64,000 nt of DNA from assembly GCA_017561145.1 (NCBI GenBank), contig JAFZDO010000001.1:2935-66934 (forward strand). The letters run 5' to 3'. Under the pieces are notes generated by a model. The model was not told the DNA's origin and searched no databases. It saw only the letters and a program-made list of their open reading frames with translations. Each line of letters begins with the position of its first letter. Position 1 is the first letter of the stretch. Both the position numbers and the translations under genes were made by a program. Source of the DNA: Clostridia bacterium. GTDB taxonomy: Bacteria; Bacillota; Clostridia; Oscillospirales; CAG-382. Shown in pieces: positions 3,218-45,192 of this stretch.

Positions 3218-5406
3218 ACCAAAGGCAAAAGATGCTTCAGCGCCGTGTGGCGAATCGGTATCCTGTTGTTCGAAACCATAACGCCTATCGTACGGCTCGT
3301 GCCGACTATGACCACCATTTCCCTTGCACGCGTGACCGCGGTATAAAGCAGGTTGCGCGTCATAAGAGGAAAGGGCGCATCGAACGAAGGGATAACGACG
3401 ATACGGTATTCGCTTCCCTGACTTTTATGTGCCGTTACGGCATAGGCGTGCTCAAGCTCCTCGAGCTGTGAAAAATCGTATTCGGTAACACGTCCGTCGA
3501 AATCGACCGTCAGGCTTTCGTTTCTCGTGTCTATTTCGGAAATGCGGCCTACGTCGCCGTTGAATATGCCGCTTCCCGATTCGTGACCGCGCTTCCATTC
3601 AAGGTCGTAATCGTTTTTGATCTGCATTACCTTGTCGCCCTCGCGGAAGATGACCGAGCCGTATTTCTTTTCGGCTTTTTTCGGCGATTTGGGATTAAGC
3701 GCATTCTGAAACATCGCGTTGAGCTCATTCGTTCCCAACGAGCCCTTTCGGGTGCAGGTTATCACTTGTATTTCGTCGAAGGGATCGGCATTATACCTTT
3801 CGGGCAGACGCTTCGCCACAAAGGAAAGGAGAAGCGACGCGATATCCTCGGCGCCCGTACGCTCTACAAAGAAGAAATCGTTATCGCGCGAGCTTAATAC
3901 AGGCATTTCGCCGCGGTTTATCGCGTGGGCGTTCATTACGATAAGGCTTTGCTCCGCCTGACGGAATATTTTATCGAGCTTGACAACGTTGAAGCGATTG
4001 GAATTGATGATATCGTTAAGACAGTTGCCGGGGCCGACGGGAGGAAGCTGATCGGGGTCGCCGATAAGGATAAGATAGCTTCCGAGCTTTACCGCCTTCA
4101 GCAAAGCACACATAAGATTAGTGTCGACCATCGACATTTCGTCTATTATAATGACCTTTTGATTTATGGGGTTTTCCTCGTCGCGCTGAAAATGGTGGCG
4201 TCCGTTATCCGCTATGCTTGCTTCAAGCAGACGGTGGATGGTTTTCGCCTCCCTGCCCGACGATTCGAACATTCTTTGTGCCGCTCTGCCCGTGGGCGCA
4301 GCAAGCACGCAGGAAAATTTAAGTATATCGCAGATATCAAGTATCGCCTTGATAACCGTCGTTTTACCCGTACCGGGACCGCCCGTGATAACGGTAACTC
4401 CGCCCGTCAGCGCGTATGATATCGCCTCGCGTTGCTCATCGGCATAGGTGATTCCGTATTTCTGCTCGAGCACCTTGGTCTGCTCGTCGATTCCCTCGAG
4501 AACGAAGGGGAATTTGAAATCGGAAAGAGCACGCAGCTTTGCGGCAATATAAACCTCGGCTGAATAAAGCTCGTGCAACGCATAGGCGTTATCACCGTCC
4601 GCTTCGAACTTCTTTATCTGCTCCTTCATAACGAGTCTGCCGACAGCCTCCCGTGCGATAGCCTCAGAAACGCCGAGCACCTTTGCCGAAGCGCTGAACA
4701 GCTCGTCCTCGGGAAGATAGCAGTGACCGCCGTTGACCGATGCAACGGTAAGCGTGTGTATTACGCCCGCCTCGGCACGGTCGGGGCTGTCGTGGGGGAT
4801 GCCGAGCGACATCGCAACCTTGTCCGCCTTATCGAACCCGATACCGCTTATATCGTTGCAAAGTCGGTAGGGTGTCATTTTTATGATATCGACGGCGGCA
4901 GAACCGTACGCCTTGAAGATCTTGACCGAAAGCGCGGGGCCGAAAAACTGATTGCAGAACATCATGACCGTCCGCATACCGAATTGCTCGGTATAGCTTT
5001 CGTGAATGCCGTCGGCGCGTTTCGGAGAAATTCCTCTTATATCGCAAAGCCAACGGGGATTGTTTTCGATAACGTCGAGCGAATCCTCGCCGAAGCGGGC
5101 AACGATCCTTTCGGCGGTAACGGGACCTATTCCCTTTATTGCGCCCGACGCAAGATATTTAAGTATTGCCGCCTGAGTTGTGGGCAGCTTTTTTTCGAAA
5201 TAATCAACGCGGAATTGACGTCCGAAGGTTGAATGTACCTGCCATTCACCCTGAACGCGAATAGTTTCACCCTCTCCGACGTAGGGCATAATGCCAACGA
5301 GCGTTATCGGCTCGCCTCCGCAATTTATGGTGCAGACGGTGTATCCGTTTTCGCCGTTCGAGTATATTATGTCTTCAACAACGCCGTCAAGATACAGCTC
5401 GCCCAA
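3214..5406 (-). CDS. recD2: RecD2-type SF1B ATP-dependent DNA helicase
   Basis: N-terminus is VVEDIIYSNGENGYTV. Walker A is ITGGPGTGKTT, Walker B is IIIDEMSMVD, and the C-terminus carries AVTAHKSQGSEY. The track start at 5484 overlaps the upstream ORF. TTG at 5406, 7 nt after AAAGGTGG, is the more plausible start. Confidence 0.9.
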   Translation of the reverse strand: MGELYLDGVVEDIIYSNGENGYTVCTINCGGEPITLVGIMPYVGEGETIRVQGEWQVHSTFGRQFRVDYFEKKLPTTQAAILKYLASGAIKGIGPVTAERIVARFGEDSLDVIENNPRWLCDIRGISPKRADGIHESYTEQFGMRTVMMFCNQFFGPALSVKIFKAYGSAAVDIIKMTPYRLCNDISGIGFDKADKVAMSLGIPHDSPDRAEAGVIHTLTVASVNGGHCYLPEDELFSASAKVLGVSEAIAREAVGRLVMKEQIKKFEADGDNAYALHELYSAEVYIAAKLRALSDFKFPFVLEGIDEQTKVLEQKYGITYADEQREAISYALTGGVTVITGGPGTGKTTVIKAILDICDILKFSCVLAAPTGRAAQRMFESSGREAKTIHRLLEASIADNGRHHFQRDEENPINQKVIIIDEMSMVDTNLMCALLKAVKLGSYLILIGDPDQLPPVGPGNCLNDIINSNRFNVVKLDKIFRQAEQSLIVMNAHAINRGEMPVLSSRDNDFFFVERTGAEDIASLLLSFVAKRLPERYNADPFDEIQVITCTRKGSLGTNELNAMFQNALNPKSPKKAEKKYGSVIFREGDKVMQIKNDYDLEWKRGHESGSGIFNGDVGRISEIDTRNESLTVDFDGRVTEYDFSQLEELEHAYAVTAHKSQGSEYRIVVIPSFDAPFPLMTRNLLYTAVTRAREMVVIVGTSRTIGVMVSNNRIPIRHTALKHLLPLV

Positions 5407-6911: not shown

Positions 6912-9363
6912 TTTCGGACTCCTTTTTCGTTTCGCCGTTAAGCTTGAGCTCGGCAAACTGCTCACGTGTGATAAGTATGTTGCGCTTCTTGGTCGCGGCA
7001 TCGAATTCGCCGATATATCCGCGGCGCTCCATTTTGTCGATGATCCTTGCGGCACGCGCATAACCGAGCGACAGTCTGCGCTGAAGCAGAGAGGTCGAAA
7101 CCGTTCCGCTTTCGATGGCGACCTCGATAGCGTCCATAAACATCGGATCGGTCTTGTCGTCGCCGTCGTCCGCCTCTGCCGCGGCAGCCGCACCCTTCTT
7201 GCCCTTCATGCCGCAGAGCTTTGCTTCCTGCTCGATCTGCTGCATGATAGCATCGTCATACTGAGCCTGAGCGGCTTCCTTGATAAACTGAGTGACGGCG
7301 GCAACCTCGCCCTTGCCGTCAACAAATGCGCCCTGAACGCGTATCGGCTTCATTGCGCCGACGGGATAATAAAGCATATCGCCCTTACCGAGCAGCTTTT
7401 CGGCACCCGTCATATCGAGAATGGTACGCGAGTCGACCGCCGAGGTGGTCGTCAACGCGATTCTCGAGGGAATGTTAGCCTTGATAAGACCGGTGATAAC
7501 GTCGACAGAAGGTCTTTGAGTACCGATAACAAGGTGGATGCCCGCCGCACGCGCTTTTTGAGCAAGACGGCAAACCGAGGTTTCAACGTCATCGGGAGCG
7601 GTCATCATCAGATCGGCAAACTCGTCGATAAAGATGACTATCTGAGGCATAAGCTCACGCTCGGGATCGTTTGCAACTGCGTTGTTATAGCCCATAAGGT
7701 CACGCGCACCGACCTCCTGAATAAGGCGGTAGCGCTTTTCCATTTCACTGCATGCCCAGTTAAGGGTGCCCGCGGCGTTCTTCGGGTCGTTGATAACCGG
7801 AACGAGAAGGTGGGGGATGTCCTTATAGTCGGAAAATTCAACCGTTTTCGGGTCGATAAGTATCAATTTTACGTCGTTGGGGTGATTGCGGTAAAGCAAC
7901 GAAATGATAAGTGAGTTAATACAAACCGATTTACCTTGACCGGTTGCGCCCGCAACGAGAAGGTGGGGCATTTTTGCGATATCAAGATAAACGGGACTGC
8001 CCGCAACGTCTTCGCCGAGCGAGCAGAAAAGTCTGCTCTTATTGTCGCGGAAGACGGCGTTGTCGATAAGTCCGCGGAGTCTTACGGTCGAGGTCGCCTT
8101 GTTGGGGATCTCAACGCCGACAGCCGCTTTTCCGGGGATATTTTCGATTCTTACCGCGGTTGCCGCAAGGTGAAGCGCGATATCGTCGGCAAGATTGGAG
8201 ATAGCCTTTACTCGGACGCCTGTTTCGGGCTGAAGCTCATATCTGGTAACGGTAGGACCGTAGGTGGAATTGATCACCTTCGCCTTTACGTTGAAGCTTG
8301 CGAGAACCTCCTCGAGCTTGCGGCTCGTCCTTTCGACCTCGGCACCGGAGGGACCGCCCATTCCGTTGCCCGAATCTGCGGTAAGCAGAGATATGGGAGG
8401 AAATACGTACGGCGTGTCCTCAATAGGCTCAAGGCAAAGCTCCTCGTCCTCTTCATCCTCGATGCTTTCGGTTTCCTCGATGATCTCGGGAATGGTTTCG
8501 GGAGCGTTTTCGTTCGGAGCCTCAACGGGCTCGTCCTCAACCGGAGCAGATACGTTCTCCTCCGCAATCGGCTCTGCCGGATCGGGAGTCAGCTCGGTAT
8601 CTGTTGCGGCGTTATATTCGGAAATAGTTTCGAATTCGGGCTTTTCCTCCTCAAGGGCGGGATCCTCGGGGAGTGCGACGGGAAGCTCGGATTGCTTCTC
8701 TTCCAGCTTCTTTTTACGGCGGGGAGCGGGTATCTCGAGCTCTTCCTCGTCTTCCTCGTCTTCACGCGCTTCCTTTGCACGGTTTGCCGCATCGCGGAAG
8801 TAATTGATTATCGCCATAACGGTGTCCTTGGGCGTTGCGCCGCAAAGAAGCACGGTGCAGATGAATATACCCAATATCGCAAGAACCATCGAAGCGGTGG
8901 TGCCGATGGTAACGGTGAAAAGCATTGCTATCGAGCCGCTGATAAGGCCCGCGCTCTTAAGCTCGATGCCCTGAGAGTATAGGAGGCTCAATGCAGGCTC
9001 CTCGCTTCCGGCAACGAGTATCTGGACGAAGATCGAAATGAACACGAATTCGAGCGCATAAATGACGTATTTCACTCTTGCGACGTTGTTCGCGTGGTCA
9101 CGTCCCCAAAAAATATCGATAACGAGGATAAGGAAGGGCACCACGTAATACATAGGCCCGAACAGCCCCTTTAAAAAGGTGGCGATAATATTGCCGAACC
9201 AACCGTTGTTGATTGCGGGTATGAACGTAAGAATGATGAAAAAGGCAATGAAGCCAACGACCCAGCGCACTATTTCGGAACGCTCGATCTTTATTTGCTT
9301 TTGCTTCGAATTGCCGGAAGTATTCGTTTTTTTAACGTTTTTGCTTTTTTTCTTATCCGCCAC
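6904..9363 (-). CDS. ftsK: FtsK/SpoIIIE-family DNA translocase
   Basis: 819 aa with N-terminal TM segments and an acidic E/P-rich linker. Walker A is GATGQGKS and Walker B is IVIFIDEFADL. The C-terminal gamma winged helix reads VSTSLLQRRLSLGYARAARIIDKME. Confidence 0.95.
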   Translation of the reverse strand: MADKKKSKNVKKTNTSGNSKQKQIKIERSEIVRWVVGFIAFFIILTFIPAINNGWFGNIIATFLKGLFGPMYYVVPFLILVIDIFWGRDHANNVARVKYVIYALEFVFISIFVQILVAGSEEPALSLLYSQGIELKSAGLISGSIAMLFTVTIGTTASMVLAILGIFICTVLLCGATPKDTVMAIINYFRDAANRAKEAREDEEDEEELEIPAPRRKKKLEEKQSELPVALPEDPALEEEKPEFETISEYNAATDTELTPDPAEPIAEENVSAPVEDEPVEAPNENAPETIPEIIEETESIEDEEDEELCLEPIEDTPYVFPPISLLTADSGNGMGGPSGAEVERTSRKLEEVLASFNVKAKVINSTYGPTVTRYELQPETGVRVKAISNLADDIALHLAATAVRIENIPGKAAVGVEIPNKATSTVRLRGLIDNAVFRDNKSRLFCSLGEDVAGSPVYLDIAKMPHLLVAGATGQGKSVCINSLIISLLYRNHPNDVKLILIDPKTVEFSDYKDIPHLLVPVINDPKNAAGTLNWACSEMEKRYRLIQEVGARDLMGYNNAVANDPERELMPQIVIFIDEFADLMMTAPDDVETSVCRLAQKARAAGIHLVIGTQRPSVDVITGLIKANIPSRIALTTTSAVDSRTILDMTGAEKLLGKGDMLYYPVGAMKPIRVQGAFVDGKGEVAAVTQFIKEAAQAQYDDAIMQQIEQEAKLCGMKGKKGAAAAAEADDGDDKTDPMFMDAIEVAIESGTVSTSLLQRRLSLGYARAARIIDKMERRGYIGEFDAATKKRNILITREQFAELKLNGETKKESENA

Positions 9364-35452: not shown

Positions 35453-35481
35453 TTGACATTGTCGATTTGCTGTGATATAAT
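35453..35481 (+). promoter_or_regulatory. sigma-A promoter of tRNA-Ser
   Basis: TTGACA (35453-35458), a 17-nt spacer, then TATAAT (35476-35481) with an extended TG. Confidence 0.65.
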
Positions 35482-35515: not shown

Positions 35516-35606
35516 GGAGAAGTCGCTTAGCTGGTCGAGGGCGCACGACTGGAAATCGTGTAACGGATAAAACCGTTCGAGAGTTCGAATCTCTCCTTCT
35601 CCGCCA
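35516..35606 (+). tRNA. tRNA-Ser (anticodon GGA), CCA encoded
   Basis: Manual fold. Acceptor GGAGAAG/CTTCTCC, anticodon stem CACGA/TCGTG with loop CTGGAAA, long variable arm AACGG-ATAAAA-CCGTT, T-arm GAGAG-TTCGAAT-CTCTC, then GCCA. Confidence 0.92.
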
Positions 35607-35610
35607 AACA

Positions 35611-35636
35611 AAAACCACCCAATCGGGTGGTTTTTT
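35611..35636 (+). terminator. terminator hairpin after tRNA-Ser
   Basis: AAAACCACCC-AATC-GGGTGGTTTTTT. Confidence 0.7.
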
Positions 35637-35647
35637 GTTTGGCTTTT

Positions 35648-35784
35648 GAAGAGATTCGAAGGGCGTAAGCCAAACAGTCCGGGGGACTGTTTGGGTAGCC
35701 CCGCGGAGCAGACCGCAACGGAAGAGGCGCGGAGCGCCGCTTGGAGTTGCATTGGGCTGCGGAGGAATCTCTCCTTCTCCGCCA
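35648..35784 (+). repeat. tRNA-3'-end-terminated structured element, Ser-type copy 1 (candidate ncRNA or att-like site)
   Basis: 137 nt and GC-rich. The last 20 nt (35765-35784, GAATCTCTCCTTCTCCGCCA) are identical to tRNA-Ser 35587-35606. The 5' AGAGATTC (35650-57) pairs with GAATCTCT (35765-72). There is an 11-bp hairpin with a GGG loop at 35670-35694, plus further helices GCAAC/GTTGC and GGCGC-GGA-GCGCC. Confidence 0.8.
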
Positions 35785-35788
35785 AAAC

Positions 35789-35820
35789 AAAAGGACAGGC
35801 AATGCCTGTCTTTTTGTTTT
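35789..35820 (+). terminator. second terminator hairpin after the duplicated tRNA 3' end
   Basis: AAAAG-GACAGGC-AAT-GCCTGTC-TTTTT. The flanks are the same as in the first terminator, but the stem sequence differs. Confidence 0.65.
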
Positions 35821-35826
35821 GGCGGA

Positions 35827-35974
35827 ATGAAGCGCACCTGACGGTGCATGAAGCATGAAGTCGCCTACGGCTATGAAGCGTGCCTTCGGCACATTAGGAA
35901 CGAAAAATGCGCTTCGCTTCATGCAAGCGTTAGCGAGTGCTTCATATTGGCGAAGCCAATGCTTCATTTTTCAT
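35827..35974. repeat. array of the heptamer ATGAAGC (x4, forward) and its complement GCTTCAT (x3-4), interleaved with short hairpins
   Basis: ATGAAGC occurs at 35827, 35848, 35855 (ATGAAGT) and 35873. GCTTCAT occurs at 35916, 35939 and 35961, with TTTTCAT at 35968. Local hairpins are GCACC-TGAC-GGTGC, GTGCC-TTC-GGCAC and ATTGGC-GAA-GCCAAT. Confidence 0.8.
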
Positions 35975-36002
35975 TGAAAATACAAAAAACTTATGATATA
36001 CT
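35974..36002 (+). promoter_or_regulatory. sigma-A promoter for the four-helix-bundle operon
   Basis: TTGAAA (35974-79), a 17-nt spacer, then TATACT (35997-36002) with an extended TG. Confidence 0.5.
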
Positions 36003-36024
36003 TCACTTGAAGGAAGGTGTTTAT

Positions 36025-36378
36025 ATGCGCAATGACAAATTATCCACGCAATCGATGGACTTCGCCGTTTCAATTATAAAACTTGTGAAATACTTAAAAG
36101 AAAGCAAAGAGCATATCATTTCCAATCAAATCGGAAGAAGCGGAACAAGCATAGGCGCGAATATCCGCGAGGCACAGTATGCGCATGGGAAAGCGGACTT
36201 TATTGCAAAATTGCAAATAGCCCTAAAAGAAGCCAATGAAACGGGATATTGGTTAGAATTGCTATACAAAACGAATTATATTACAGAAGATCAATATAAA
36301 GATTTAGATGCAGTTTGTACGGGTCTTCGTGCTATGTTAATTGCATCTATTAACACCGCTAAGGAGAATATGAAATGA
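36025..36378 (+). CDS. four-helix-bundle protein of the 23S rRNA intervening-sequence protein family (Avd-like fold)
   Basis: The ATG at 36025 follows GAAGGAAGG. The sequence FAVSIIKLVKYLKESKEHIISNQIGRSGTSIGANIREAQYAHGKADFIAKLQIALKEANETGYWLELL is typical of this family. The upstream part of the track ORF lies in the heptamer array. Confidence 0.75.
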   Translation: MRNDKLSTQSMDFAVSIIKLVKYLKESKEHIISNQIGRSGTSIGANIREAQYAHGKADFIAKLQIALKEANETGYWLELLYKTNYITEDQYKDLDAVCTGLRAMLIASINTAKENMK

Positions 36379-36953
36379 GGTTATACCACGGTTCTATATT
36401 TGCTAATATAACTGAACTGTTGGCGAATTCAACTTTACACGAAAACGCGAATCAAAAGGTTGTCTATCTTACTGACAATATTCCATATGCTCTGTTATAT
36501 ATTTGGGATTCAAACCGTAATTTTAAACAAGGCAAGCACGTTACCGCGTGGATTAAAGAAAACCAAGTATTCTATGAGGAACAATTCCAAAATCAATTGA
36601 GAACTTTCTATGACGGTGTCAGCGGATATTTATATGCGGTAAACAATACTACATCTTTTTCCCCCGTTAACAACCGAGAAGCCATGTGGTTTTCTCCTAA
36701 TAACACAAAAATCGATATAGTTAAATATATCCCGAACGTATACGATGAACTTTGTAAATATATAAATTCAGGCGAATTGAAAGTTATTCATTTCGAGGAT
36801 GTCGATAGCGAAAGAGTTAACGATTTGTATAATTGTATCGTAGATCGAATAATATCCAAGCACTTACTTGAGAACCCCGATGATTCGGACGCGGTTTTTT
36901 ATCAAAAATTTTTTCTTGAGGCATGGGAATTAGCTAAAAGCAAAAACGTATAA
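36375..36953 (+). CDS. hypothetical protein (N-terminal LYHGS motif)
   Basis: 192 aa with AT-rich codon usage and a start overlapping the upstream stop (ATGA). RLYHGS...VVYLT is only faintly reminiscent of H-Y-E ADP-ribosyltransferase-like folds, so no assignment is made. Confidence 0.4.
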   Translation: MRLYHGSIFANITELLANSTLHENANQKVVYLTDNIPYALLYIWDSNRNFKQGKHVTAWIKENQVFYEEQFQNQLRTFYDGVSGYLYAVNNTTSFSPVNNREAMWFSPNNTKIDIVKYIPNVYDELCKYINSGELKVIHFEDVDSERVNDLYNCIVDRIISKHLLENPDDSDAVFYQKFFLEAWELAKSKNV

Positions 36954-37011
36954 TCTTTCGATTGTTCAATTCTATACCTTCTATCATCTGTTTTATTCTA
37001 CCTTTACAAAC

Positions 37012-37057
37012 AAAAACCGCAATTCTGATACAAAAGAGTTGCGGTTTTTGTTTTTTT
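37012..37057 (+). terminator. intrinsic terminator
   Basis: AACCGCAA-N17-TTGCGGTT followed by a T-run. Confidence 0.6.
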
Positions 37058-37099
37058 ATGGTATAATAGAATTACAAAAAACTAAAGGAGGCATTTTCT

Positions 37100-37528
37100 A
37101 TGAAAATATTTAATCCCGCAGATTGTAAGGAACCACCTCGAGCCGATATGTTTTTACCTGATTTTTTAAAATATTTTGGTTTTTTTCTGGATGCTGTAGC
37201 AATAGTATTCTTAGTTGCAACATTTATTACACAAATTTGGGGATTAATTATAGGAGCGCTTATTTGTGGAGGACTTGGTGTCGCAGCATGGCTTTGTTGG
37301 AAAAATCAGACAGTTCGTATCATTGATGAGGATCGCTTTGAATACACTACTTTTTTAGGAAAAACGACCGTATATAATTTCTCAGATATAAAGGCTTTGC
37401 GTGTCAATCAAGATTCCATGACATTGATTTTAACAAATGGAAAAATACATATAGAATCTATGGTACGTATGTCACAAGCTCTTGTCGACAAAATAGATCA
37501 ATCAATCGAAAAAACAAGTAGTAATTAA
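37100..37528 (+). CDS. hypothetical two-TM membrane protein
   Basis: 142 aa with AGGAGG upstream. It has two adjacent hydrophobic helices, then a small soluble domain. Confidence 0.5.
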   Translation: MKIFNPADCKEPPRADMFLPDFLKYFGFFLDAVAIVFLVATFITQIWGLIIGALICGGLGVAAWLCWKNQTVRIIDEDRFEYTTFLGKTTVYNFSDIKALRVNQDSMTLILTNGKIHIESMVRMSQALVDKIDQSIEKTSSN

Positions 37529-37561
37529 AAAGTTTTGTATCAAAATTATGGTTATTAGCCA

Positions 37562-37596
37562 AAAAGAACAACCACCAAACGGTGGTTGTTTCTTTT
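37562..37596 (+). terminator. terminator-like hairpin preceding Ser-type copy 2
   Basis: AACAACCACC-AAAC-GGTGGTTGTT plus a T-run. It is preceded by GCCA, as at the true tRNA end. Confidence 0.6.
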
Positions 37597-37601
37597 TGTT
37601 C

Positions 37602-37731
37602 TGAAGAGATTCGAAGGGCGTAAGCCAAACAGTCCGGGGGACTGTTTGGTTAGCCCCGCGGAGCAGACCGCAACGGAAGAGGCGCGGAGCGCCGCTTGGA
37701 GTTGCATTGGGCTGCGAAGGAATCTCTCCTT
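37602..37731 (+). repeat. tRNA-3'-end-terminated structured element, Ser-type copy 2
   Basis: There are 2 substitutions relative to copy 1 over the shared 126 nt. The match to the tRNA-Ser 3' end is truncated to 13 nt (GAATCTCTCCTTC). Confidence 0.8.
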
Positions 37732-37749
37732 CGACATTTTTTGCGTTAC

Positions 37750-37778
37750 CTTGACAAAATAGCTAAACTGCTATAAAA
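37750..37778 (+). promoter_or_regulatory. probable sigma-A promoter for the 37810 gene
   Basis: TTGACA (37750-55), a 17-nt spacer, then TAAAAT (37773-78). Confidence 0.45.
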
Positions 37779-37809
37779 TAATATCATCAATCCCAAAGGA
37801 GGCAGAAAA

Positions 37810-38292
37810 ATGACGATTGAACAGGCGATATATTTTAAAGTTCTGATTTGCAACGGATACCCCGAAGAGTTGTTGAAATACATTGACACCGCTTTGGAAA
37901 CGCAGGATCCGCTAAGCGACATTGTTTTGGAGATGTCTTTTGCCGCAAATGACGAAGAAAAGCTGATTTCTCTATTAAACGAGCGCATCAACAGTGTAAA
38001 GCCCGAGGAAATCGACTTCGACGGCACTTTGTTCGATATGCTTCTGGCATTCTTCAAAAGAAAATACAGAGAAGAAAATATGCCAATTGATGAGCTTGTA
38101 TATCTTATGTATAGATTCTCGCTCGTTTATGAACCATGGGACAAATGGTGGAATGCTGCAACAAGTCGCCTTTGGCACGTAATGTATTATATGCAGGATT
38201 ACTATGAATTTGGCGACAGGAATGAATTTTTGAAGATGTTGGACGACTTTTTGGATAATAAGATACCTCCCGAATCTCCGTTTTTACGATAA
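37810..38292 (+). CDS. hypothetical small helical protein
   Basis: 160 aa with AAAGGAGG upstream and AT-rich codons. No family recognised. Its size and composition resemble orphan immunity-type cassette proteins (speculative). Confidence 0.45.
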   Translation: MTIEQAIYFKVLICNGYPEELLKYIDTALETQDPLSDIVLEMSFAANDEEKLISLLNERINSVKPEEIDFDGTLFDMLLAFFKRKYREENMPIDELVYLMYRFSLVYEPWDKWWNAATSRLWHVMYYMQDYYEFGDRNEFLKMLDDFLDNKIPPESPFLR

Positions 38293-38350
38293 GAGCAATC
38301 GCATTTTACAATTGAACAGTTTTTGCGAGAAAATTCATCATTGAAAATTC

Positions 38351-38383
38351 AAAACAACCACCCAATCAGGTGGTTGTTTTTTT
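38351..38383 (+). terminator. terminator-like hairpin preceding Ser-type copy 3
   Basis: AACAACCACCC-AATC-AGGTGGTTGTT plus a T-run. Confidence 0.6.
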
Positions 38384-38388
38384 GTTTT

Positions 38389-38514
38389 GAAGAGATTCGA
38401 AGGGCGTAAGCCAAACAGTCCGGGGGACTGTTTGGTTAGCCCCGCGGAGCAGACCGCAACGGAAGAGGTGCGGAGCACCGTTTGGAGTTGCATTGGGCTG
38501 CGGAGGAATCTCTC
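38389..38514 (+). repeat. tRNA-3'-end-terminated structured element, Ser-type copy 3
   Basis: There are 4 substitutions relative to copy 1 over 126 nt. Two of them are compensatory in the GGYGC-GGA-GCRCC hairpin. The tRNA-end match is truncated to 9 nt (GAATCTCTC). Confidence 0.8.
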
Positions 38515-38578
38515 GAAAAATTTTCCAGAATGTATTTCGAGGATATTTTTCTCTTCGCTTTTCATTTTCCGTTTTAAG

Positions 38579-38607
38579 TTGAAAAGCAATTGGCATTGTG
38601 CTATAAT
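38579..38607 (+). promoter_or_regulatory. sigma-A promoter for the serine hydrolase-namZ operon
   Basis: TTGAAA (38579-84), a 17-nt spacer, then TATAAT (38602-07) with an extended TG (TGCTATAAT). Confidence 0.6.
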
Positions 38608-44886: not shown

Positions 44887-44961
44887 GGCCTGTTAGTCAA
44901 GTGGTCAAGACGTCGCCCTCTCACGGCGAAGGCAGGGGTTCGACTCCCCTACGGGTCACCA
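44887..44961 (+). tRNA. tRNA-Glu (anticodon CTC), CCA encoded
   Basis: Manual fold. Acceptor GGCCTGT/ACGGGTC (two G-T pairs), anticodon stem TCGCC/GGCGA with loop CTCTCAC, T-arm GGGG-TTCGACT-CCCC, then ACCA. It closely resembles Bacillus-type tRNA-Glu. Confidence 0.88.
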
Positions 44962-44964
44962 CGA

Positions 44965-44999
44965 AAAACAAACCTCACTTTATGTGGGGTTTGTTTTTT
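44965..44999 (+). terminator. terminator hairpin after tRNA-Glu
   Basis: AAACAAACCTCAC-TTTAT-GTGGGGTTTGTTT plus a T-run. Confidence 0.7.
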
Positions 45000-45011
45000 G
45001 TCTTGCAAATT

Positions 45012-45149
45012 GGGAGTCGAAGGGCGCGTGTTGAATGACAGTCCGGGGGACTGTCAGACCGCGCCACCGCTCCGCCCCGGGGTCCCCGAAAATGAACGAA
45101 GTGAGTTTTTGGGGTGGACGTAGGCGGGCGACTCCCCTACGGGTCACCA
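45012..45149 (+). repeat. tRNA-3'-end-terminated structured element, Glu-type
   Basis: 138 nt. The last 21 nt (45129-45149, CGACTCCCCTACGGGTCACCA) are identical to tRNA-Glu 44941-44961. The 5' GGGAGTCG (45012-19) pairs with CGACTCCC (45129-36). It shares the core TCGAAGGGCG and the hairpin ACAGTCC-GGG-GGACTGT with the Ser-type element. Confidence 0.8.
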
Positions 45150-45150
45150 G

Positions 45151-45187
45151 AAAACAAACCTCACTTTATGTGGGGTTTGTTTTTTGT
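45151..45187 (+). terminator. second copy of the tRNA-Glu terminator hairpin
   Basis: Nearly identical to 44962-44999. Confidence 0.65.
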
Positions 45188-45192
45188 ATAAC

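Follow-up and report, generated by a model that had tools for sequence, protein, structure and literature searches.

How an islet of small, unrelated genes came to be built behind a single tRNA gene, and what the near-identical element that recurs within it does, are the questions raised by a 64,000-nt stretch of DNA from an uncultured gut or rumen Clostridia bacterium (Oscillospirales; CAG-382), taken from contig JAFZDO010000001.1 of assembly GCA_017561145.1 (positions 2,935–66,934) and hereafter called the window. A sequence-only reading, made without database searches, had described the interval 35823–38578 as an integron-like or accretion array lacking a recombinase. We tentatively favor the second half of that description: the islet would be a serial accretion of small non-autonomous insertion modules, placed at the tRNA gene's 3′ end and containing the recurring element (X), together with separate gene cassettes. 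Positions refer to the window and features to its forward (+) strand unless stated otherwise; related loci carry L numbers.

X is approximately 125–128 nt long and occurs in the window in three copies, with covariance-model scores of 146–162 bits. The first copy, X1 (35647–35774; covariance model 148–162 bits, minimum-free-energy fold, and covariation), follows tRNA-Ser(GGA) (35516–35606; ARAGORN and Rfam) and a bidirectional intrinsic terminator (35607–35642; hairpin 35610–35635, then a T-run). X2 (37602–37729 in the covariance model) and X3 (38388–38515, covariance model) lie behind terminators at 37563–37598 (hairpin 37566–37591) and 38351–38380 (hairpin), and all three hairpins are bidirectional and of the AACCACC...GGTGGTT type. 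The copies form repeat family D1 (35603–35777, 37558–37732, and 38344–38518), differ pairwise by 2, 4, and 4 substitutions over a 126-nt core, and share a 25-mer that occurs three times where none is expected by chance. After each copy, the T-loop-to-3′-end stretch of tRNA-Ser (35587–35606) recurs as a direct repeat that shrinks with distance from the tRNA: 20 nt including CCA after X1 (35765–35784; repeat D2, overlapping the 3′ strand of the closing helix), 13 nt after X2 (37720–37732, extending that unit to 37602–37732), and 9 nt after X3 (38506–38514). In X2, the last junction and the tRNA-end repeat form a hairpin, CGAAGG/CCTTCG, followed by a T-run. The near identity of the copies (2–4 substitutions over 126 nt), the common hairpin type in front of them, and the decay of the tRNA match over 20, 13, and 9 nt had all been noticed from the letters alone and are upheld here.

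The fold of X is a three-helix junction in which helix P1 closes the element and P2 and P3 are its two arms (in X1, P1 pairs 35650–35657 with 35765–35772, P2 spans 35661–35701, and P3 35708–35760). A covariance-model alignment of 14 distinct X copies, taken from metagenome genomes of relatives, shows compensatory two-sided changes at 18 of 39 pairs and has 96.4% of cells paired, compared with 36–47% in controls whose partners were slid by 1–3 columns. Four diverse members, each folded singly, return the same structure. The few non-Watson-Crick pairs are G.U, all on the tRNA-sense strand, and in four of four members its fold is more stable than that of the antisense strand; therefore, it is the tRNA-sense strand that folds, be it as RNA or single-stranded DNA. 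The conserved junctions are rich in purines, with three occurrences of CGGAG, the ends of the element are GAAGAGATTC and GAATCTCTCC, and X is more conserved than the neighboring genes. X is assembled from interchangeable modules, with P2 types A, B, and C and P3 types a–d in free combination. In all loci it lies in tRNA orientation, 4–10 nt after a terminator or small hairpin. It has no promoter of its own and sits 3′ of a canonical intrinsic terminator.

Among the X copies of locus L009, one (4485–4651) has an insertion of ~40 nt in P2 that contains a module, GGGGTCCCCGAAAATGA...TTTTTGGGGT, also present in the P3 arm of Y, the distant relative of X described below (window 45075–45118), which indicates that sub-modules move between positions of the fold. 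Since X is open in several frames, spurious ORFs have been called across X and the antisense strand of the tRNA (window 35527–35967 on the − strand; L010 3718–4158), one of them 146 aa in length, and public protein sets hold such X-spanning “hypothetical proteins”. Readings of the antisense strand as a 5′ guide followed by a scaffold and a terminator were excluded because every wobble pair favors the sense strand. Ribozyme readings (hairpin, hammerhead, group I, and group II) found no backing in Rfam, and a group I core would not fit into an element of this size. When the window was searched with Rfam 15, only its two tRNAs passed the gathering threshold, and nothing credible appeared over X at E values up to 5. 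A description of an X-like element was not found in the literature searched.

The closing helix ties X to its neighboring tRNA. At its 5′ end X carries AGAGATTCGAA, which exactly repeats, in inverted form, the tRNA-Ser T-loop and the 3′ strand of the T-stem, and the first part of the duplicated tRNA end supplies the 3′ strand of P1. P1 is thus the inverted T-loop/T-stem paired with the duplicated tRNA end, and X therefore holds the sequence of its insertion site in folded form. Four P1 variants were observed, and they change with the neighboring tRNA. At tRNA-Ser with the T-stem GAGAG, P1 is AGAGATTC/GAATCTCT. In L037, whose tRNA-Ser has the T-stem GTGGG/CCCAC, it is GGGATTC/GAATCCC, then AATCCCACCTTCTCCGCCA. 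In L027, an X-like element behind a tRNA-Ser fragment with a different acceptor end repeats that end. This fragment (L027 12210–12330) is the 3′ part of another tRNA-Ser, from the anticodon arm to the 3′ end, and sits between an intact tRNA-Ser(GCT) and the element.

A second target lies within the window itself. Nine kilobases from the X locus, behind tRNA-Glu(CTC) (44887–44961; ARAGORN and Rfam) and its terminator, is Y (45008–45149; sequence, fold, and a covariance-model match over 45008–45139 with E 1.6e-4, search filters off). Its 5′ end, GGGAGTCGAA, is the inverted T-loop and T-stem of tRNA-Glu, its P1 is GGGAGTC/GACTCCC, and its 3′ end is a 20-nt copy of the tRNA-Glu 3′ end (45130–45149) followed by a second copy of the terminator. 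Y and X have in common the junction GAAGGGCG and the loop ACAGTCCGGGGGACTGT. Given these shared motifs and the match of each P1 to its neighbor, the scaffold is conserved and P1 is fitted to the adjacent tRNA. L003 carries Y at tRNA-Glu in the same arrangement, and all four helix substitutions between the two Y copies retain pairing via G.U on the sense strand. In L014, a contig end from the same species, an apparent second tandem terminator and Y follow the tRNA-Glu end repeat (7814–8135), which is either a real duplication or an assembly loop at the repeat. The covarying sense-strand fold, the inverted T-loop/T-stem at the 5′ end, and the relative at tRNA-Glu all go beyond the sequence-only reading.

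Comparison of related loci reveals gain, loss, and exchange. A pattern scan with the two X ends across 185,579 species genomes located X in seven metagenome-assembled genomes of Clostridia, Eubacteriales, or Ruminococcus, one locus each, while two further hits (L006 and L008) were chance matches. Additional loci were obtained from a metagenome scan and via the neighboring ytvI gene. The metagenome scan gave only L018, L025, and L024/L027 as new loci; its eight other matches were attributed to chance, lying in coding DNA without a tRNA nearby. A protein search with a spurious X-spanning ORF returned mostly antisense-tRNA ORFs but led to L037 and L038.

A clean event is seen between L037 and L034, which represent a filled and an empty site. 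A 177-nt unit consisting of a tRNA 3′-end copy, a terminator, and X is inserted in L037 precisely inside the T-loop-to-CCA repeat; downstream, the two loci are otherwise collinear. L005 and L031 hold empty tRNA-Glu sites. L003, with flanking genes 94% identical to those of the window, is without 35785–37564, exactly between two GCCA(AA) sequences; its X2 is internally deleted and X3 is absent. L007 (flanks 86–89% identical) has a single X directly 5′ of the 160-aa protein gene, with P2 and P3 modules that differ from those of the window, and likewise has no X3. X copies stand in tandem with zero genes between them in L009 and L001, and the X of L038 is a hybrid whose left half fits its own tRNA while its right half is of the L037 type. 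The similarity of X is, moreover, out of step with host relatedness, a horizontal signature: L030 has flanks 77–81% identical to the window and an X ~95% identical, and L004 has flanks 70–73% identical with P1 and P2 identical to those of the window, as opposed to the differing modules of the more closely related L007. The cross-relative comparison proposed by the sequence-only reading thus yielded both an exactly bounded missing block and a filled/empty pair, and accretion at the tRNA end, in a hotspot shaped by gains and losses, is supported by direct boundary polymorphism in L003, L007, and L037/L034 with breakpoints in the tRNA-end repeats.

That X is an ordinary dispersed repeat, of the repetitive extragenic palindromic (REP), REP-doublet (REPIN), or miniature inverted-repeat transposable element (MITE) kind, or terminator-associated repeat DNA, is an idea we find barely credible. 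Its size (~125 nt), hairpin-forming inverted ends, and extragenic position by terminators do recall enterobacterial repetitive intergenic consensus (ERIC) sequences and REPINs. In contrast to these, X is low in copy number, strictly linked to tRNA genes, fixed in a single orientation, and equipped with tRNA-specific ends. It occupies a single locus in each of the seven genomes. With search filters off, the window holds three X and Y, all behind tRNAs, and both a short target-site duplication and high copy number are absent. The sequence-only reading had named dispersed REP or MITE repeats as the outcome that would undo its case, and the one-locus distribution points away from it.

In the accretion reading that we favor, two kinds of unit would have been laid down. 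The first would be a non-coding unit of ~180 nt made of a tRNA 3′-end copy (T-loop G57 to CCA), an intrinsic terminator, and X, whose insertion would leave the tRNA intact and push its former 3′ end beyond X. The second would comprise self-contained cassettes (terminator, repeat field, own promoter, and one or two small ORFs) with end motifs of their own. Most economically, X would act as the cis-acting site of a non-autonomous insertion module, with P1 presenting the crossover sequence in folded form, and would be moved or recombined by an enzyme encoded elsewhere. Recombination between copies may account both for the near identity of the three copies here and for the shuffling of modules between genomes. 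The fold, the match of P1 to the tRNA, the filled and empty sites, the variable presence of cassettes, and the discord between X and host similarity are observed; the enzyme, its strand chemistry, and the acting form of X, RNA or single-stranded DNA, are the parts of this scheme that we infer.

Several observations weigh against this account. The islet is identical in all same-species assemblies, among which short-read contigs are interrupted at X3. No gene for an integrase, a transposase, a relaxase, or a reverse transcriptase adjoins X in the window or in ~25 related loci with up to 10 kb of flank, and X was not found in phage and plasmid collections (BLASTN) or in viral-contig collections (pattern scans). 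The repeat around Y (whole arrangement 44887–45190) is ~58 nt long and consists of the tRNA-Glu 3′ end and the genome's own terminator. This duplicated terminator differs between the window and L003, and the duplication looks local rather than like imported DNA. Finally, wobble pairs that are all G.U on the sense strand, combined with conserved purine-rich junctions, are typical of a functional RNA.

Because of the local-looking duplication at Y and the RNA-like pairs and junctions, we keep as a strong rival the view that X is a functional structured 3′-trailer RNA, transcribed by read-through from the strong tRNA promoter and ending in a tRNA-like 3′ tail, with a role in tRNA processing or as a decoy; we judge it possible but less likely than accretion. 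The array would then be the product of unequal crossing-over among the tRNA-end repeats, with other, unrelated routes of arrival for the cassettes. Such an RNA would explain why X always lies on the tRNA-sense strand, here downstream of a promoter with 12/12 consensus matches (35453–35481, upstream of tRNA-Ser), why G.U pairs fall on that strand only and leave four of four Y helix substitutions pairing-neutral, and why the sense fold is the more stable in four of four members. The conserved purine-rich junctions with three CGGAG, a first copy that ends exactly at CCA before a terminator, and the presence of Y at the same site in two lineages also fit. It is harder to reconcile with a canonical intrinsic terminator upstream of X and the lack of an own promoter, with X2 and X3, which are distant from the tRNA and have truncated tails, and with a patchy occurrence among close relatives in which X similarity does not track the hosts. 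The presence of X at three different tRNAs would itself need relocation. A related proposal, target-primed retro-insertion of a tRNA trailer with a duplication of 20 or 58 nt, was set aside, as a reverse transcriptase was not found and there was no further evidence for it.

The cassettes between the X copies have an organization of their own. The GC content of the islet is 33%, or 0.32–0.35 over 36200–37600, compared with ~0.47–0.52 in the flanks. Each cassette is self-contained, with a terminator, a promoter-like site (10–11/12 matches), and one or two ORFs. Promoter-like sites lie at 35974–36002, 37751–37779, and 38579–38607. Directly after the tRNA-end copy of X1 come a second bidirectional terminator (35785–35826; inverted repeat I1), which forms the left edge of the block absent from L003, and a region we term a hairpin field (35827–35965; DNA fold z-score −5.4). 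The first gene (36025–36378) encodes a four-helix-bundle protein of the 23S rRNA intervening sequence protein family (PF05635, E 6e-29; TIGR02436, E 8e-33) and shares an ATGA overlap with the gene of a 192-aa “LYHGS” protein (36375–36953). Further downstream are a cassette for a protein with two transmembrane segments (two-TM cassette, 37008–37562; terminator 37008–37053, gene 37100–37528, and end motif 37533–37562) and, behind X2, the gene of a 160-aa protein (37810–38292) with its own promoter at 37751–37779. The 160-aa gene adjoining X is also kept in L003, L007, L018, and L030, and the terminator hairpin that precedes X2 stands directly 3′ of the tRNA in L038. Between the LYHGS gene and the two-TM cassette, a degenerate tRNA-end-like sequence, aattctataccttctat...acaaacaaaaacc (36966–37003), may be an older, decayed junction. 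Except for the four-helix bundle, the islet proteins have zero matches in Pfam, PHROGs, NCBIfam, PADLOC, and PDB. No recombinase or transposase domain was detected in the islet genes and 30 other ORFs of the window, a scan that left aside four very large ORFs and ORFs shorter than 180 aa. The lower GC, the promoters downstream of the elements, the four small genes as real open frames (with a family for the first only), and the absence of integrase and transposase from the ORFs scanned agree with what the sequence-only reading had reported.

Hairpin fields are built from a 7–8-mer that occurs first as direct and then as inverted repeats, the copies separated by a small hairpin (ATGAAGC, the 7-mer of the window field; GTGAAAT; ATATCATC), and in every case have a terminator on one side and the strong promoter of a cassette on the other. 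Others occur in L025 (~150–320), L030 (9390–9540), L031 (4590–4790), L036 (200–400 and 1040–1210), and L041 (9450–9690), and a match to any known class was not found. Cassettes with such fields include those of tRNA-adjacent four-helix-bundle genes. In related genomes, such genes recurrently take the first position downstream of tRNA-Ser or tRNA-Glu (L031 4845–5192, L034 463–813, L037 4413–4763, and L041 9154–9498, in addition to the window copy), each with a small partner gene that overlaps or closely follows it.

The two-TM cassette is bounded by the inverted arms CCGCAATTCTGATACAAAA and TTTTGTATCAAAATTATGG (inverted repeat I6) and ends in the motif TTTTGTATCAAAATTnnGGTTATTAGCCA, which also closes unrelated cassettes in L018, L025, and L004 and has an inverted partner inside the next terminator. 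Sites were located in the window (37017–37035 and 37533–37562), L004 (780–835), L025 (323–351), and L036 (1239–1267 and ~9040–9056). The last of these is a phage- or satellite-like IMG/VR contig without a tRNA, which encodes a primase-D5 protein, a capsid protein, a helix-turn-helix protein, a methylase, and two large serine recombinases, the first of which has another motif copy immediately upstream of its gene. The motif may be a recombinase site or serve an antiterminator-like pairing. The GCCA in front of X2, which the sequence-only reading took as retained from the tRNA end, is indeed present, but it belongs to this cassette-end motif and need not be a tRNA remnant, because the motif also occurs in the tRNA-less phage-like contig.

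These phage-associated motifs bear on whether the islet is a set of passive scars, in which the tRNA-end repeats would be leftover attL/attR sites of deleted prophages or integrative elements and X a functionless fragment of an attP arm. Integration classically targets tRNA 3′ ends, the repeats become shorter farther from the tRNA, and islet cassette motifs do occur in a phage- or satellite-like contig encoding two large serine recombinases. Nevertheless, we hold this to be very improbable: X shows compensatory covariation and is conserved above neighboring genes, the terminator–X junction is a tight 4–10 nt in every locus, unlike random deletion endpoints, and X was found in none of the viral and plasmid collections searched.

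The integron-like half of the earlier description fared less well. In its strict form, the islet would be a true Firmicutes integron analogue, with X as an attC-like site folded as single-stranded DNA, the T-arm as an attI-like target, and a tyrosine recombinase encoded elsewhere that takes up and shuffles cassettes; we consider this distinctly unlikely. The resemblance is considerable, since like attC sites (imperfect palindromes of ~60–140 nt), X has inverted ends that match the insertion site and conserves structure above a variable sequence. Its copies are nearly identical within an array, as are the Vibrio cholerae repeats, and they lie between small AT-rich cassettes in a layout like that of an attC cluster without an integrase. 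In addition, P1 is identical to the target on its crossover-side strand, and the presence or absence of a cassette block follows repeat boundaries exactly (L003). However, X is a three-helix junction whose insertion site is a tRNA T-arm, whereas attC is one bulged hairpin, and the R″/R′ (R/L) core sequences are absent: the ends of X are GAAGAGATTC and GAATCTCTCC instead of RYYYAAC and GTTRRRY. An intI-like gene was seen nowhere in the sampled loci, and the ~25 related loci likewise offered no recombinase beside further X copies, where the sequence-only reading had proposed to look. The cassettes carry their own promoters and terminators and are self-expressed, rather than being promoterless units behind a common promoter; X also forms cargo-free arrays (L009 and L001), and the right boundary of the cassette block is a different motif, not X. 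Integrons are not known in Firmicutes, the phylum of this host.

A further comparison is with guide-bearing RNAs of mobile elements. TnpB omega RNA consists of a scaffold and then a 3′ guide taken from the flank. Like the TnpB omega RNA and the IS110 bridge RNA, X is a scaffold of ~100–150 nt that adjoins and pairs with target-matching sequence, and the target-matching part varies with the target while the scaffold motifs stay constant. Unlike in those RNAs, the target-matching segments of X pair mutually instead of lying in loops or a free tail, and neither a TnpB, IscB, or IS110 gene next to any X nor a HEARO or omega-RNA-like Rfam match was found. A bridge-RNA reading as such was excluded, given that the internal loops are invariant with target. 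X and Y could still be the cis module of an undescribed programmable Clostridia system that targets the T-loops of tRNA genes, a proposal we rate as unlikely. In such a system, the conserved scaffold (junction GAAGGGC, the P2 loop, and the CGGAG motifs) would be recognized by a trans-acting enzyme, and the 5′ strand of P1 would be the guide that chooses a complementary tRNA T-arm. Serial use would build cassette arrays, making it an integron analogue by function.

The closest parallels for the accretion reading come from islands stacked at tRNA genes, the accretion of which is well known. Tandem accretion at tRNA genes occurs in the cis-mobilizable elements (CIMEs) related to Streptococcus thermophilus ICESt1 and in the tycheposon and genomic-island arrays of Prochlorococcus with their partial-tRNA repeats. 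The window shares with them serial insertion at a tRNA 3′ end, decaying direct repeats, units without an integrase, and cargo that varies between related strains. The tRNA-3′-end direct repeats that bound CIME units are found here as well (20, 13, and 9 nt in the window, L037/L034, and the L003 junction). In contrast to those systems, the recurring unit is only ~180 nt and non-coding, its core is a covarying fold whose 5′ end is the inverted T-loop/T-stem, and an autonomous, integrase-bearing parent element using the same attachment site was not found among the loci, phages, plasmids, and viral contigs searched. As a structured element X seems to be undescribed; it falls within the familiar theme of accretion at tRNA sites and could be what is visible of a novel targeting system.

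What was not known before is a tiny, non-coding, highly structured unit with a closing helix that is refitted to each tRNA targeted. If X is a recombination partner, it would provide an integron-free route to cassette arrays in Firmicutes, with the choice of target encoded in a short helix; if X is an RNA, it would stand for a tRNA-linked RNA family that is new and missing from Rfam. In both cases, the covariance model and the rule that P1 follows the adjacent tRNA give a handle for an enzyme search by co-occurrence in complete genomes.

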